This document shows, in pieces, positions 1 to 9,222 of a DNA stretch of 9,222 bases. Position 1 is the stretch's first letter. The number at the start of each line of letters is the position of its first letter. Source of the stretch: Candidatus Hermodarchaeota archaeon (GTDB lineage Archaea; Asgardarchaeota; Heimdallarchaeia; Hodarchaeales; Hodarchaeaceae); contig JBHLKY010000051.1 of assembly GCA_048886185.1 (NCBI GenBank), forward strand, positions 1 through 9,222. Direction: 5' to 3'. The notes beneath the pieces are model-generated. The model searched no databases and had not been told where the DNA came from. It saw only the letters and a list, made by a program, of their open reading frames with translations. Made by a program: the position numbers and the translations under genes.

Positions 1-314
1 TTTTAAAAAATTAATATCCTGTAAGTTATCCACTTCCCAAATTCTTAAGAAATAGTATCATTTTTGATCCTTATACATTTTTTTCGCTTTCGAGTACACT
101 CGTTGTCCATATTTTTTTTTCAGATTATTTGGAAAACCCTGAAATAAAGCTTAAACTATGAATTGAGATGAATATAGAAAATAATTAATTAGAAATAAAG
201 GCTTTTTGATTTGATATTCTTAATGAAAAAGCTTGAAAAAAATGTGTGTTCTACAAAATAGTTTTATCAACTTTATTAAAAAATGATTTTCTTAACTAGT
301 ATATAACTGATAAT

Positions 315-995
315 TTATATTAATGCGTCAAATAAGGTAACTGGACGACCTACAGGACTTCTCTTTTTTGGATATTCAACTGCAAATCCCCTCGTAATCA
401 ATCGTTGTAAACTGTCATAGATTGTGCTTCGTGGAGCACCTGCCAATTGAACTAACTCTGAACGGGTAAGGGGTCCGTACGCTTTTAAAATTTCTAATAG
501 AATGAGATCCAAATCATGGGTTAGTGGTAGCCTTTCTTGAGTCTTTGTAGAGTCTCTTTTAGTTGATGTTGAATCTAATAATAGATGTTTAAGAAGTAAA
601 GAATCATACCTAATCTCTAAAGAAGCAAGTCTCTCTAGAGATTCTTTCCGAATTGTGTTAATGATGTTAGAAATAGACGTTGTTTCAGGTAATCCAAGAA
701 GTTCCCGCAAATTTGTAATTTCATTATAAAATTGATTTAATTGAGAGAAATCCGAGGAGGAGAGATTTAAAGAGTTCCGAATCTCCTCTAATTTATTGTA
801 AAAACGATAATGTTGTTTAATTGGGTATATTGATGGGAGCTCTAATTCAGATTGCATTTTTTTGAGGAGTTGCCATATATCTCTCACTTCTTTTTCAGAA
901 ACAACTCCTTTTAGGCGTAGTAGTCTTCGTAGCTCACCTAGATTCTTGTTTCCAAATGAATCTTTTTCTGGGGAAAAACTGCTATTATAAGTCAA
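315..995 (-). CDS. TrmB-like winged helix-turn-helix transcriptional regulator with an N-terminal helical-repeat region
   Basis: C-terminal aa ~161-226 (LILLEILKAYGPLTRSELVQLAGAPRSTIYDSLQRLITRGFAVEYPKKRSPVGRPVTLF) fits the TrmB/ArsR-type wHTH pattern, including the PRSTIYD recognition helix and GRP wing. The start is TTG at 995. The frame is closed by TAA at 1038-1040 with no ATG in between, so the exact start is uncertain. Confidence 0.8.
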   Translation of the reverse strand: MTYNSSFSPEKDSFGNKNLGELRRLLRLKGVVSEKEVRDIWQLLKKMQSELELPSIYPIKQHYRFYNKLEEIRNSLNLSSSDFSQLNQFYNEITNLRELLGLPETTSISNIINTIRKESLERLASLEIRYDSLLLKHLLLDSTSTKRDSTKTQERLPLTHDLDLILLEILKAYGPLTRSELVQLAGAPRSTIYDSLQRLITRGFAVEYPKKRSPVGRPVTLFDALI

Positions 996-1741: not shown

Positions 1742-4357
1742 ATGATACTTCCGAATCGAAGTTATATCTGGGAGGCAATTAAACAACATCCCCGGACGGT
1801 CGCTCTCATTATTACATCGATGATTACACTCCCTCTTTTTGCATTCACATCTCTACCTCCAGTCGAAGTTACTGAAGAAATTCTACAAAATACAGTGGAA
1901 GAAATTCTCATTCCAATTGAAGTCCCTGTAAATGTTTCAGTTGAGGTTCCTATCGAAATTAATCAAACTATTGAGATGGAGGTCAATAAAACAGTTGAAG
2001 TGGAGGTTAATATCACAAAAGAGGTGGTGGTCAATACAACAATAGGAGTTAATATTACAGAAGGAGGAAGTATTTTTCTGGAATCACAACCGTTACCACC
2101 ACTTATCGACATGGATATTGTCTTTTGTATCGATACCTCGGGTAGTATGGATGCGAATCGGATGCCACTAGCAAAAGCTGCTATTCGCAATACCTTAAAT
2201 TTGATCAATCAATCGTATTGGGCGAATCTATCAAATGATCAAGTGAGTTTAGTATCATTTGATTATATAAATGATGGAGATTGGACGACTGATGCTACAC
2301 TTCATGCTCCTTTAGATTATATAAGTAATCAGACACATTTATCACATCTTCTGAGTGAGGTGGAGTCTCTGAGTGGTCTCGGGGGAACGGACGCATGGGC
2401 TGGGTTGAACCTCTCATTAGATGCTTTATTCAACACACAGCGTAACTCCTCGGTTTTGAAAACCATCCTCTTTCTTACAGATGGAAAACATAATTCAGGT
2501 CCTTGGGGTACAGAGGTTAATGCGGGGAACTATGATGGCTTTATGCAACTCCCTTCAAATCGAGCACCTGCTTCAGCTAGTCCGATTGTAGTGGCTCGGA
2601 ACAATAATGTCAAGATTTACTCAATTGGGTTGTTTGAAGGAGCCATATACGATTTTGATGAGTTATTTTTAAGAAATATATCATTAGACGAGAATTATGG
2701 AACCGCTGGTGACTTCTTTGTAGGGAATGATACGTTATCTTTATCCGAGGGCTTTTTAACGGCCCGTGATCATGCATCTGGTTGGGTAACTGTGAATAGC
2801 TCGGAAGTGGTACTCCAAGACACTGGTACATTCCAAATGTTTACCTATAATGTTACAAATGATATTAGAAGGCTTAAATGGGACTTAAATTGGATTGATT
2901 CTTCTGTTGACTTTAATTTGATAATTATTGACCCCAACAAGACTTGTATCGATATTTCTACTAATATCACTAAAAATATTATTCCTATTACCCTCAAAAA
3001 ACCGAAATCTATCATTTTCGATTTCCCAATACTTGGTTTTTGGCAGTTTAATTTATCATGGCAAAATATCACAAGCCCAGGAGACCTTATTAAAGGAAGG
3101 CTCTCCTCTTACAATCCTCCAATCTTCATTGAATCTATAACGCAGTATAATTCATCAACTTTCAATACAACTTTGGAATCTTTTCCTTTAAGATCAATAT
3201 TAATGACTTCAAATACTACACAACCATTTCTGGATTCTATTTCATTTAGAGTAACTGATTTTAATGATAGTGTCTTTAGTAATCAATCAGTATATTTTTT
3301 GGTCAATGTAACGAATAAGAATCCATGGTTTACTTATAATAATATTACACCTTATGTGCTTGCAAATTTCTCTTCTTTCAACATAAGTCATACTTGGGAT
3401 CCTCCAGTTGTTAACACCTTAACAACGAACGAATCAATTTCATTTCTCTTCAATCTCACCTTTCTCGAACCTACTCTTCTTCAGGGTGATATCTTTTTTA
3501 AAGTAAACTGTTCTGAGGGTTATTACGACGCTGTAGCCCAATCAGTTACGTTGGATTATCGAATTACCACACAAAATGTGACTGTAGAAAGTCATCTTGA
3601 AAATCAAACAATAACTGTAGTTGAAAATCGTACGATTTCTGTCGTAGAAAATCAAACTATTATTACAGTGATAAGTTCTACTGGTTATGAGCTTAGAACC
3701 CAAATTACTCTTGTTCCTGGTACAACTAACGTTCTGAAATATACTTATGACCGTCAAATGTTTGATACTCTGAAATGGATAGGATTTTTTGCAACACTAG
3801 CTCTATTGATGTCTTTTTTGGTAGTCTATATTATGTCTCAAGCCCATCACTTGAAGAATCTCGCTAATAAATTTCGAGGACGATTTTTCCAAGACCAATC
3901 TGCCTTGGAATTGGCTTTACAGCGAGAAGGAATTACAATTGCTCCTGCAGACCTTAGTTCAGTTATGATGGAAGCTGATGATTTAGATCAGCTTGGAGAT
4001 AATATTTTTAATTTAACAGGAAAAAGACTATCTCCAGAAGAGTTGATTAGGTTAGCATCTGGCACCAATATGGATAAGATTGCCGATAGGATAAGTTATG
4101 TAACTGGTATGTCGAAAGATGAGATTATCTCTCATCTGAGAGATGCTCCAAGCATTGAAGTACTAATAGAACGATTAAATTTAGATAGCGAACGATTTCT
4201 AGATATAATCGCTCGTGATGAGGATGTAATAAACTTTCAAAAAAGAATTTTTAACTTAATGCCTCCCACAAAACGTGAAATATCTGGAATCCGAATATAT
4301 GATGATTTAAATGTTGATCAGTTTCGATCTCGTTTAAGAGAAAAGTTTTATTCTTAA
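1742..4357 (+). CDS. Predicted two-TM cell-surface protein: vWA domain with MIDAS, beta-rich domains, sequon-rich stalks, cytoplasmic helical tail
   Basis: MIDAS DTSGS lies at 2132-2146, followed by GGTD, LFLTDG and VKIYSIGL, all vWA hallmarks. Hydrophobic segments are at ~1799-1855 and ~3776-3835. I hand-count about 35 N-x-S/T sequons between them. ATG at 1742, preceded by GGTGA (1733-1737), is preferred over the track's in-frame TTG at 1706. Confidence 0.85.
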   Translation: MILPNRSYIWEAIKQHPRTVALIITSMITLPLFAFTSLPPVEVTEEILQNTVEEILIPIEVPVNVSVEVPIEINQTIEMEVNKTVEVEVNITKEVVVNTTIGVNITEGGSIFLESQPLPPLIDMDIVFCIDTSGSMDANRMPLAKAAIRNTLNLINQSYWANLSNDQVSLVSFDYINDGDWTTDATLHAPLDYISNQTHLSHLLSEVESLSGLGGTDAWAGLNLSLDALFNTQRNSSVLKTILFLTDGKHNSGPWGTEVNAGNYDGFMQLPSNRAPASASPIVVARNNNVKIYSIGLFEGAIYDFDELFLRNISLDENYGTAGDFFVGNDTLSLSEGFLTARDHASGWVTVNSSEVVLQDTGTFQMFTYNVTNDIRRLKWDLNWIDSSVDFNLIIIDPNKTCIDISTNITKNIIPITLKKPKSIIFDFPILGFWQFNLSWQNITSPGDLIKGRLSSYNPPIFIESITQYNSSTFNTTLESFPLRSILMTSNTTQPFLDSISFRVTDFNDSVFSNQSVYFLVNVTNKNPWFTYNNITPYVLANFSSFNISHTWDPPVVNTLTTNESISFLFNLTFLEPTLLQGDIFFKVNCSEGYYDAVAQSVTLDYRITTQNVTVESHLENQTITVVENRTISVVENQTIITVISSTGYELRTQITLVPGTTNVLKYTYDRQMFDTLKWIGFFATLALLMSFLVVYIMSQAHHLKNLANKFRGRFFQDQSALELALQREGITIAPADLSSVMMEADDLDQLGDNIFNLTGKRLSPEELIRLASGTNMDKIADRISYVTGMSKDEIISHLRDAPSIEVLIERLNLDSERFLDIIARDEDVINFQKRIFNLMPPTKREISGIRIYDDLNVDQFRSRLREKFYS
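3599..3670 (+). repeat. Three tandem 24-nt coding repeats (ENQTITVV / ENRTISVV / ENQTIITV)
   Basis: Units begin GAAAATC at 3599, 3623 and 3647. Each encodes an N-x-T sequon. Confidence 0.9.
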
Positions 4358-8833: not shown

Positions 8834-9222
8834 TCATGTATTTGAAACGCTTTTTATCTGCCTTAATTCTTCAAGTGGCTTTTCTAAGACGTATTGTCGA
8901 TCAATTTTCCAATAATGGGTAGTAAAATCAAAGTTTTCTGGATAAAACCAGTAGATTGTTGATGCATTGACTGATGTATCTAATGTATAAGCGTTAAACG
9001 ACTGGAAGAGCTTCCAAATTGAAAAGGCTAGTTGATGTTCTTGAAAACTGGGAAGAGCACCACCCCATAATAAGAAGCCATTATTTTGGAGTATATCCAT
9101 ACCAAATCGAAAAGGAGGGGGAGATTCTGTAATAAGATTGAAGAAGCGATTAGTCGTCTTTTTATCCGAAGTAGGAACCCAAAATACTCGAGTATTAACT
9201 AAATTGAATAGAATTCGATCAA
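8834..9222 (-). CDS. 3' part of a hypothetical protein truncated by the window edge
   Basis: The frame of the 88-aa track ORF stays open upstream of ATG 9100 to the window end (DRILFNLVNTRVFWVPTSDKKTTNRFFNLITESPPPFRFG-MDIL...). The true start probably lies outside the window. The stop is TGA at 8834-8836. Confidence 0.7.
   Translation of the reverse strand, partial: DRILFNLVNTRVFWVPTSDKKTTNRFFNLITESPPPFRFGMDILQNNGFLLWGGALPSFQEHQLAFSIWKLFQSFNAYTLDTSVNASTIYWFYPENFDFTTHYWKIDRQYVLEKPLEELRQIKSVSNT

Follow-up and report, generated by a model that had tools for sequence, protein, structure and literature searches.

Integrins, and the integrin-beta-like protein SibA of Dictyostelium, bind ligands via a metal ion held in an extracellular head, which has the von Willebrand factor A (vWA) fold with a metal-ion-dependent adhesion site (MIDAS) and stands on legs above the membrane; the adaptor of these receptors is talin. 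In the anthrax toxin receptors ANTXR1 and ANTXR2 (TEM8 and CMG2) a MIDAS-bearing vWA domain is followed by an immunoglobulin (Ig)-like domain, a transmembrane segment (TM) and a sizeable cytoplasmic tail, all in one polypeptide. Degenerate ParA/MinD proteins (e.g. TadZ/CpaE, BcsQ, FlhG and archaeal MinD4) are hubs that localise envelope machines. The archaeal lineage considered here is held to be the closest to eukaryotes. Among the eukaryotic signature proteins (ESPs) of Asgard archaea are some with integrin repeats (Liu et al. 2021, as cited in passages of PMC9197732 and PMC9258230), and the Asgard family fam15271 is similar to integrin beta 4 and always adjoins tubulin/FtsZ genes (PMC9258230). 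Asgard archaea, including a cultured Hodarchaeales strain, adhere to and crawl on surfaces, and their membranes carry surface proteins of unknown identity, no adhesion molecule being named in the searched passages of the paper in question (PMC13716822). The window analyzed in this study (i.e. the whole stretch of DNA, 9,222 nucleotides) is a complete 9.2-kb contig (C51) of a 4.84-Mb Hermodarchaeota genome, which is 96% complete. It contains a gene (positions 1742-4357, + strand) for a vWA protein with two hydrophobic segments, hereafter the receptor, and directly beside it a gene for a MinD/ParA-like protein, hereafter the neighbour. With a probability of roughly 0.55, these two genes form a lineage-specific module, comprised of a transmembrane adhesion receptor and a cytoplasmic pseudo-MinD that acts as its docking scaffold.

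The receptor gene begins with an ATG codon and its product has 871 amino acids (aa); an alternative TTG start at position 1706 would make it longer by 12 aa. Two Pfam vWA models match the protein: VWA (PF00092) on residues 125-318 (E-value 3.5e-13, 50.6 bits with a cut-off of 23.8) and PF13519 (E-value 1.2e-11, 45.6 bits with a cut-off of 27). The MIDAS residues D131, S133, S135, T216 and D247 (pattern DxSxS...T...D) are invariant in an alignment of 23 homologs, which show 43-89% identity. Hydropathy analysis (19-aa Kyte-Doolittle windows) revealed hydrophobic segments at approximately residues 19-40 (TM1, peak 2.04) and 677-701 (TM2, peak 2.38), the latter being followed by a tail of 170 aa (residues 702-871). 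As many as 35 of the 37 N-x-S/T sequons are located within residues 41-690, while 10.9 ± 2.8 would be expected between the TMs (2000 composition-preserving shuffles), which gives the ectodomain a density of about one sequon per 19 aa. The remaining two are found within the N-terminal 18 aa and within the tail (0.8 expected in the tail). The complete MIDAS, the two hydrophobic segments, the approximately 35 sequons between them and the tail of about 170 aa had already been listed in a preliminary description of this DNA, made from its letters alone, and each of them was confirmed; these features are far above chance.

In the 23 homologs, the 15-aa flanks carry on average a net charge of +2.5 before and -4.3 after TM1, and of -0.4 before and +3.9 after TM2. 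Sequons in the same proteins occur at 5.4 per 100 aa in the ectodomain and at 0.57 per 100 aa in the tail, which is an approximately 10-fold bias to the region between the TMs. As the flank charges follow the positive-inside rule and N-glycosylation occurs outside the cell, the receptor is predicted to have both termini in the cytoplasm and its vWA domain outside; the cytoplasmic vWA domain that the preliminary description had named as fatal to its receptor proposal is therefore not indicated by these data. The ectodomain is presumably N-glycosylated, as judged from the sequons. The genome of the window encodes an STT3/AglB oligosaccharyltransferase, and glycosylation of N-x-S/T sites has been demonstrated in an Asgard archaeon (PMC11284389). 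Residues T29, P31, L32, F35 and P39 of TM1, and E42 just after it, are invariant in the 23 homologs. Since such conservation is unusual for a cleaved signal peptide, TM1 is probably a retained signal anchor.

A first line of evidence concerns the two stalks of the receptor, low-complexity segments that link its head to TM1 (N-stalk) and to TM2 (C-stalk). Their lengths were measured in 36 full-length homologs, from the L-P-P-x-E motif to the MIDAS strand in the case of the N-stalk, and from E-G-Y-Y-D-A to the D-T-L-K-W motif in the case of the C-stalk. The N-stalk spans 52-96 aa and the C-stalk 40-85 aa, and in 35 of the 36 proteins the former exceeds the latter by 11 or 12 aa (17 distinct length pairs, r = 0.994). 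The lone exception, P0015 (856 aa), is off by 8, its C-stalk being one 8-aa repeat short. The stalks are separated by approximately 500 residues in the chain, and insertions or deletions in one are matched by equal ones in the other. Shared ancestry as the cause of this coupling was ruled out using a tree built from the parts of the protein outside the stalks: parsimony gave at least 17 length changes in each stalk, yet only 18 joint changes, and of 12 phylogenetically independent pairs with differing lengths, 11 showed changes (of 1-38 aa) that were equal in both stalks to within one residue. As the lengths change together in evolution, the two stalks are probably physically paired, side by side and in register (e.g. 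as an antiparallel ribbon), possibly within an oligomer. Such residue-exact co-variation of separated stalks is rare as an evolutionary mark of paired, extended structures, and structural studies of archaeal surface glycoproteins could take it as a guide.

The second line of evidence is the conservation of the gene pair. In a phylum-wide search the neighbour and the receptor tail co-occurred in the same 12 genomes (12/12), with the neighbour gene placed 6-122 bp from the 3' end of the receptor gene in convergent orientation. The neighbour has 67 homologs, all of them in Hodarchaeales-type archaea and many on contigs equal in length to those of receptor homologs, and in loci L002-L005 it lies directly beside the receptor gene (49-80% identity). 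In one of these (L005) the two genes are co-directional instead of convergent, and for this reason their linkage is not merely that of an inherited operon. A divergent pair from a genome of another family in the phylum was identified on a 3.1-kb contig (locus L015, G398:C134:1-3131), where the neighbour ortholog shows 25% identity and the receptor is truncated by the contig end; the protein P0053 seems to belong to this divergent clade, too. The one further genome with a trace of the neighbour is the closed 4.9-Mb genome G067, from the genus of the other homologs; the receptor was found nowhere in it, whereas a fragment of the neighbour (residues 1-195) and an ortholog of a tetratricopeptide repeat (TPR) gene of the window remain (G067:C1:3643491-3646180), a decayed locus that fits joint loss of the pair. 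The receptor and the neighbour are thus inherited and lost together.

The motifs of the neighbour resemble those of MinD/ParA P-loop NTPases, but its P-loop is degenerate. The Walker A region reads S-T-G-T-T-x-S-Q-T, with G10, Q15 and T16 invariant, and departs from the deviant Walker A pattern K-G-G-x-G-K-[ST], as both lysines of the latter are absent and Gln occupies the position of the Walker A Lys. The distant G398 ortholog (G-G-A-G-E-G-Q-T-T) carries Gln as well, which shows that the Lys-to-Gln change is old. An h-h-h-h-D strand and an N-G motif are also present. Language-model features placed the neighbour with CbiA/ParA/AAA_31 clusters at 0.94, with BcsQ and CpaE clusters among the nearest (atlas search), and hhalign comparison with five MinD-like proteins of the same genome gave a weak match (probability 33%, E-value 4.6e-4) over 108 columns including the h-h-h-h-D and N-G regions. 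PADLOC defence models revealed no family for either protein at E ≤ 0.01.

Structure prediction of the receptor tail together with the neighbour yielded ipSAE interface scores of 0.76, 0.90 and 0.87 (median 0.87), while all three controls scored 0.00. The mark for this score is reached by 58 of 80 solved complexes and by 2 of 110 mismatched pairs, figures that are rough here, own alignments having been used. We know of no similar complex, so that recall of a solved structure is unlikely. The predicted interface comprises residues 61-70, 83, 85-92, 103, 106, 137 and 140-141 of the neighbour and residues 775-787 and 821-843 of the tail; invariant among these are K63, E70, D85, W86, S87, P92, P103 and F106 of the neighbour, and R783, I822, D826, V829, F832 and Q833 of the tail. 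Conservation is higher at the interface residues of the neighbour than elsewhere in this protein (52% vs 24% at ≥90% identity, p = 4e-4). Taken together, the modelling supports binding of the tail to the neighbour.

In the proposed mechanism the 871-aa receptor would insert with both termini in the cytoplasm. Its MIDAS-competent vWA head would be exposed outside together with the two beta-sandwich domains, carried by a pair of extended stalks with dense N-glycosylation. These stalks, one leading up from TM1 and one leading down to TM2, would form a single in-register, two-stranded leg, which would hold the head at a set height well above the membrane and keep TM1 close to TM2. The vWA domain would bind an acidic ligand via a metal ion, whether this ligand belongs to a substrate, a partner cell or the surface of the cell itself, and the helical 170-aa tail would dock the 308-aa pseudo-MinD. 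Because Gln replaces the Walker A lysine, the latter is probably a static adaptor, i.e. a scaffold that may cluster, position or anchor the receptor, and not an ATP-driven oscillator. Of this picture, the domain content, the conservation of the MIDAS and of the gene pair and the coupling of the stalk lengths are shown by the data, while the topology, the glycosylation, the contact of tail and neighbour, the stalk pairing, the adhesive function and the scaffold role are inferred.

Several observations weigh against the proposed module. The receptor and neighbour genes are convergent and therefore not co-transcribed, and no RNA run containing the family was present among the public runs listed. 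The MinD/ParA assignment is weak: a Pfam search with the neighbour gave no match, and a profile search against PDB nothing meaningful (best E-value 0.18). The score of the complex expresses confidence of the model, and the three runs share 8% or more of their contacts (pLDDT, the predicted local distance difference test, of the neighbour at least 68); moreover, the interface residues of the tail are not significantly more conserved than the remainder of the tail (p = 0.26). The topology is derived from hydropathy and flank charge, and TM1 could be cleaved. Finally, the pairing of the stalks is deduced from their lengths.

The ectodomain following the vWA core was modelled with AlphaFold2 (residues 318-676, 23 sequences, mean pLDDT 67.5). 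The model comprises, in order, the last vWA helix, a first beta-sandwich (D1, residues 348-470, pLDDT of blocks 81-91), a variable linker of low confidence, a second beta-sandwich (D2, residues 515-605, pLDDT of blocks 74-89) and a low-confidence stretch (residues 608-676). Foldseek matched D1 to the C-terminal jelly rolls of subtilases (Tk-SP 3afg, KP-43 1wmd and 5fax; E-values of approximately 1e-4), with root-mean-square deviations of 3.5-4.5 Å over 119-137 columns, and both D1 and D2 to Ig-like modules of glycoside hydrolase family 2 enzymes, factor XIII and Fsx1. According to these models, D1 and D2 are generic spacer or binding modules.

The preliminary description had also cited integrin I-domains and anthrax toxin receptors for the metal-dependent ligand binding of MIDAS vWA domains; a specific kinship of the head with either was not supported. 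When the vWA profile was compared with all PDB sequences, matches with E-values of 1e-6 to 1e-3 were obtained for collagen VI, 4rck, a hemolysin-like protein, Mfa5, ITIH4, alpha2delta-1, Gram-positive pilus adhesins and complement factor B. The entry 4rck (E-value 5e-6) is a bacterial membrane-spanning protein, and the hemolysin-like match is a secreted one. Integrin alpha-M gave an E-value of approximately 0.1 over 38 residues (profile positions 16-53, i.e. the first strand and the MIDAS loop), and was outranked by collagen VI, 4rck, Mfa5, ITIH4, alpha2delta and factor B, while ANTXR chains were absent from the 60 best matches. A PDB sequence search with the whole family matched the vWA part only, and the receptor gave no match to the Integrin_beta model of Pfam. 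Judged by these comparisons, the vWA domain of the receptor is a generic and divergent one, with no special tie to integrin, ANTXR or Bat domains.

The cytoplasmic tail was modelled from 23 sequences as well (AlphaFold2, residues 700-871, mean pLDDT 67.7), and the resulting structure consists entirely of helices, 11 in number and mostly short (about 10), with visible serial helical hairpins. Mean pLDDT in 10-residue blocks is 70-93 across tail residues 21-120 (aa 720-819). The tail contains 14 invariant residues, which cluster in S-G (773-774), R783, T788 and I-I-x-x-D-E-x-V-x-x-F-Q (822-833). No match to its fold was found in PDB with Foldseek (best E-value 0.8) or in the atlas structure search (TM ≤ 0.36), the atlas feature search yielded no usable match, and a HMMER scan of 1.84 billion representatives recognized no tail outside the receptor family. 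Internal repeats have no statistical support, as self-comparison with hhalign gave one off-diagonal match of 19 columns (E-value 0.038, probability 1.4%). A separate 223-aa protein (P0051), which lacks a TM, carries the tail domain behind an unrelated N-terminus of 74 aa; either a chimeric gene call or a tail that stands alone may account for it.

The preliminary description proposed an outside-in receptor rather than a simple S-layer or secreted vWA protein. The second half of this claim is supported, as the conserved tail and its predicted, conserved cytoplasmic partner set the protein apart from a passive secreted or S-layer one; the outside-in direction is not, as nothing indicates a direction of signalling. 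A structural surface-coat glycoprotein of S-layer type, with the main role of building or organising the glycocalyx, appears unlikely. Its vWA domain would make lateral contacts between proteins of the coat, the pseudo-MinD would help in assembly or positioning, and the sensing of an external ligand would play no part. This reading would suit the extreme sequon density (one per approximately 19 aa), the long stalks (which would fix the height of a coat), the single copy of the receptor gene in the genome of the window and the fact that Asgard cells are wall-less and decorated with surface proteins, as stated in passages of PMC13716822. However, roughly half of the species genomes in the genus lack the family, which hence cannot be an essential coat, the perfectly conserved MIDAS suggests specific ligand binding, and coat proteins do not typically combine a conserved tail of 170 aa with a partner dedicated to it. 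At the other extreme lies an independently evolved, single-chain, integrin-like mechanoreceptor, in which a glycosylated leg of two strands that must keep in register, the TM hairpin, the tail and the pseudo-MinD would tie adhesion sites to positioning or cytoskeletal systems and serve substrate adhesion in protrusion-based crawling or attachment to syntrophic partners; this extension of the proposed module is quite doubtful. A further variant changes only the anchoring: as a type I membrane protein, the receptor would lose TM1 by cleavage of a Sec signal peptide, its N-terminal stalk would be free and TM2 would be the sole anchor. A positive N-terminal region followed by a hydrophobic segment does resemble a signal peptide, but the hydrophobic stretch of approximately 20 aa, the invariance of T29, P31, L32, F35, P39 and E42 among proteins of 43-89% identity, and the exact matching of stalk lengths, most simply explained if both stalks are fixed in the membrane, make this variant distinctly improbable.

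There is a slim chance that the receptor controls transcription, with ligand binding relayed via the tail and the pseudo-MinD to the TrmB-like winged helix-turn-helix (wHTH) regulator encoded divergently at 315-995. Such a gene does lie upstream on the opposite strand, and relatives of the receptor whose cytoplasmic part is of FHA or RING type resemble signalling receptors; on the other hand, tblastn searches did not detect the wHTH gene beside the pair in L002, L003, L005 and L015, and neither the tail nor its partner contains a recognizable enzymatic or signalling domain. Membership in a characterised prokaryotic vWA system (BatA/BatB aerotolerance proteins, MoxR-associated vWA proteins or chelatase subunit D-like proteins), which the preliminary description had listed as an outcome that would undo its proposal, is very improbable. 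The similarities that might be cited for it are weak and concern the vWA domain only: BatA/BatB-type structures 4jdu and 3ibs are matched at E-values of 0.016-0.028 and 4rck at 5e-6, and the receptor scores far below the cut-offs of the chelatase D and sortase-target models of NCBIfam. BatA/BatB proteins are marked by a BatA_N-type N-terminal membrane domain and by an operon with MoxR AAA+, DUF58 and TPR BatC-E genes. Here, by contrast, the resemblance does not extend beyond the generic vWA core, a BatA_N domain is lacking, genes for AAA+ MoxR, DUF58 or chelatase proteins are absent from the window and the four other loci (L002-L005), and the vWA domain is predicted to be extracellular and glycosylated.

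Table 1. Features of the receptor, its neighbour and the surrounding genes in the 9,222-nucleotide window.
Feature	Position	Residues	Strand	Remarks
Short cytoplasmic N-terminus (predicted), net positive	1742..1795	1-18	+	Flank charge +2.5 before TM1
TM1	1796..1861	19-40	+	Motif T-x-P-L-F-x-F-T-S-L-P-P; Kyte-Doolittle peak 2.04
N-terminal stalk, acidic, 8-residue-periodic	1862..2113	41-124	+	6 sequons: 64, 74, 82, 90, 98, 104
vWA domain with complete MIDAS	2114..2779	125-346	+	PF00092, PF13519; last helix (331-346) from model
MIDAS codons, within vWA	2132-2134; 2387-2389; 2480-2482	D131; T216; D247	+	
Beta-sandwich D1, subtilase-C-terminal-domain-like jelly roll	2783..3151	348-470	+	AlphaFold2, Foldseek
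Variable low-confidence linker	3152..3283	471-514	+	pLDDT <50; deleted in many homologs
Beta-sandwich D2, Ig-like	3284..3556	515-605	+	AlphaFold2, Foldseek
C-terminal stalk, E-N-x-T-I-x-V-V-type 8-residue repeats	3557..3769	606-676	+	4 sequons: 612, 621, 629, 637
TM2	3770..3844	677-701	+	Kyte-Doolittle peak 2.38; Y696 invariant, W679 and G681 nearly invariant
Cytoplasmic tail (predicted), all-helical in model, with stop codon	3845..4357	702-871	+	Predicted docking site 775-787, 821-843
MinD/ParA-like neighbour, 308 aa	4386..5312		-	Degenerate P-loop; adjoins receptor gene
TrmB/IclR-type wHTH protein, 226 aa	315-995		-	PF01978, E-value 5.7e-7, C-terminal; helical N-terminal part unassigned
Zinc-ribbon open reading frame (ORF), 54 aa	5438-5602		+	Divergent from pseudo-MinD gene; partial TackOD1 (Thaumarchaeal output domain) match, E-value 5e-5, below cut-off
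TPR-repeat protein, 568 aa	5704-7410		-	Almost wholly TPR; strongest TPR gene of the genome by far (TPR_16 model)
ORF, 98 aa	7589-7885		+	No Pfam family
ORF, 257 aa	7906-8679		-	No Pfam family
ORF, at least 128 aa	8834-9220		-	Open at contig end; no Pfam family

The remaining genes of the window (Table 1) were not found to accompany the pair consistently. In L002, L003, L005 and L015, tblastn detected the receptor and the neighbour only, and not the wHTH, zinc-ribbon, 98-aa, 257-aa and 8834-9220 ORFs, and it is the two-gene pair that is the unit under selection. The 568-aa TPR protein was considered as a further member and rejected, its linkage being inconsistent among genomes: its ortholog adjoins the pair locus in G068 and G067, is encoded at a different place in G071 and G072, and occurs even without the pair in G057 and G073, so that a weak, partial association is left. 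Other, shorter TPR genes are located 0.5-3 kb upstream in some loci.

A search of 5.8 billion proteins retrieved 42 full-length receptor homologs, labelled Hodarchaeales, Kariarchaeaceae, Heimdallarchaeota or Promethearchaeota, two Thor/Hermod labels occurring within this same family, and the exhaustive HMMER scan mentioned above gave only 12 clusters at E < 1e-30. The Hodarchaeales or Heimdallarchaeota labels of the homologs show the host to be a Hodarchaeales-type Asgard archaeon, the case in which the preliminary description had held its proposal to be notable. Of 400 genomes of the phylum, those with the tail are G000, 10 of the 21 further species genomes belonging to the genus of G000, and G398 from another taxonomic family; the other 377 searched gave no match. 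Public DNA runs containing the family are sediment and estuary metagenomes. The receptor family is therefore a narrow, patchy and lineage-specific invention; being confined to about half of one genus-level clade and one distant genome, it is not a precursor of eukaryotic adhesion receptors. For the same reason, and because its vWA domain is generic, the family has no bearing on the origin of eukaryotic integrins, and its narrow distribution, together with the absence of homology to eukaryotic receptors, limits its evolutionary weight.

No paper mentioning both "Hodarchaeales" and "von Willebrand" was found, and the papers retrieved for Asgard or archaeal transmembrane vWA proteins appear, by their titles and the openings of their abstracts, not to concern this family. 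As far as could be found, a dedicated pseudo-MinD partner and a length-locked double stalk have not been reported before. As a candidate for the adhesion step of Asgard archaea, the module is open to testing, and it offers practical handles: a mutable MIDAS head, named conserved residues in the predicted interface, and presence/absence variation within one genus.

With regard to the systems described so far, the receptor resembles the integrin-repeat ESPs and fam15271 in being an Asgard surface or adhesion-type candidate of the kind discussed for eukaryogenesis. It is set apart from both by their descriptions, not by sequence comparison; in contrast to fam15271, no tubulin/FtsZ gene lies beside the receptor family (window and L002-L005). 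With integrins and SibA it would share the ligand-binding extracellular MIDAS head on legs, two membrane-spanning helices side by side and a cytoplasmic tail docking an adaptor. However, integrins are alpha/beta heterodimers, whereas here a single chain carries both TMs, and the receptor has no beta-propeller, PSI, hybrid or EGF domains (Pfam gave vWA models only, and the middle part consists of jelly-roll and Ig-type sandwiches). The short integrin tail with its NPxY motif is replaced by a 170-aa helical tail without NPxY, and the FERM adaptor by a degenerate MinD-like one. The likeness to integrins is one of analogy, not homology. ANTXR1/2 are similar in the order of their parts, from the MIDAS vWA domain through an Ig-like domain and a TM to the sizeable tail of the same polypeptide, but they have a cleaved signal peptide and no second stalk, and the receptor showed no Anth_Ig or Ant_C Pfam match at E ≤ 0.1.

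The neighbour resembles the ParA/MinD hubs in that a SIMIBI-type fold would serve as an adaptor for a membrane complex; it differs from them in its more degenerate P-loop, in the lack of a Pfam match and in its predicted partner, the tail of a vWA receptor. The receptor, in turn, has distant relatives (P0060 and P0065, both of vWA-TM-FHA type, and P0054) that share the vWA domain and the following jelly roll (E-values 1e-27 to 1e-6). One of these, P0054 (798 aa, archaeal-type), has an extracellular part made up of a MIDAS-bearing vWA domain and PKD/Ig domains, a single TM and, on the cytoplasmic side, a zinc ribbon with a RING finger, a layout that could represent a receptor-E3-ligase-like design. 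Proteins of the vWA-TM-FHA and vWA-TM-RING types agree with the receptor in the succession of a signal or TM, a vWA domain, a beta-sandwich, a TM and a cytoplasmic domain. They contain recognizable signalling domains of their own, in contrast to the family-specific helical tail with a separate partner described here, have few sequons (1-4 in the FHA forms), and matched double stalks were not seen among them. An extracellular vWA domain joined through a TM to a cytoplasmic module is thus a recurrent prokaryotic design, which supports, by analogy, a receptor-like function for the protein of the Hermodarchaeota contig.

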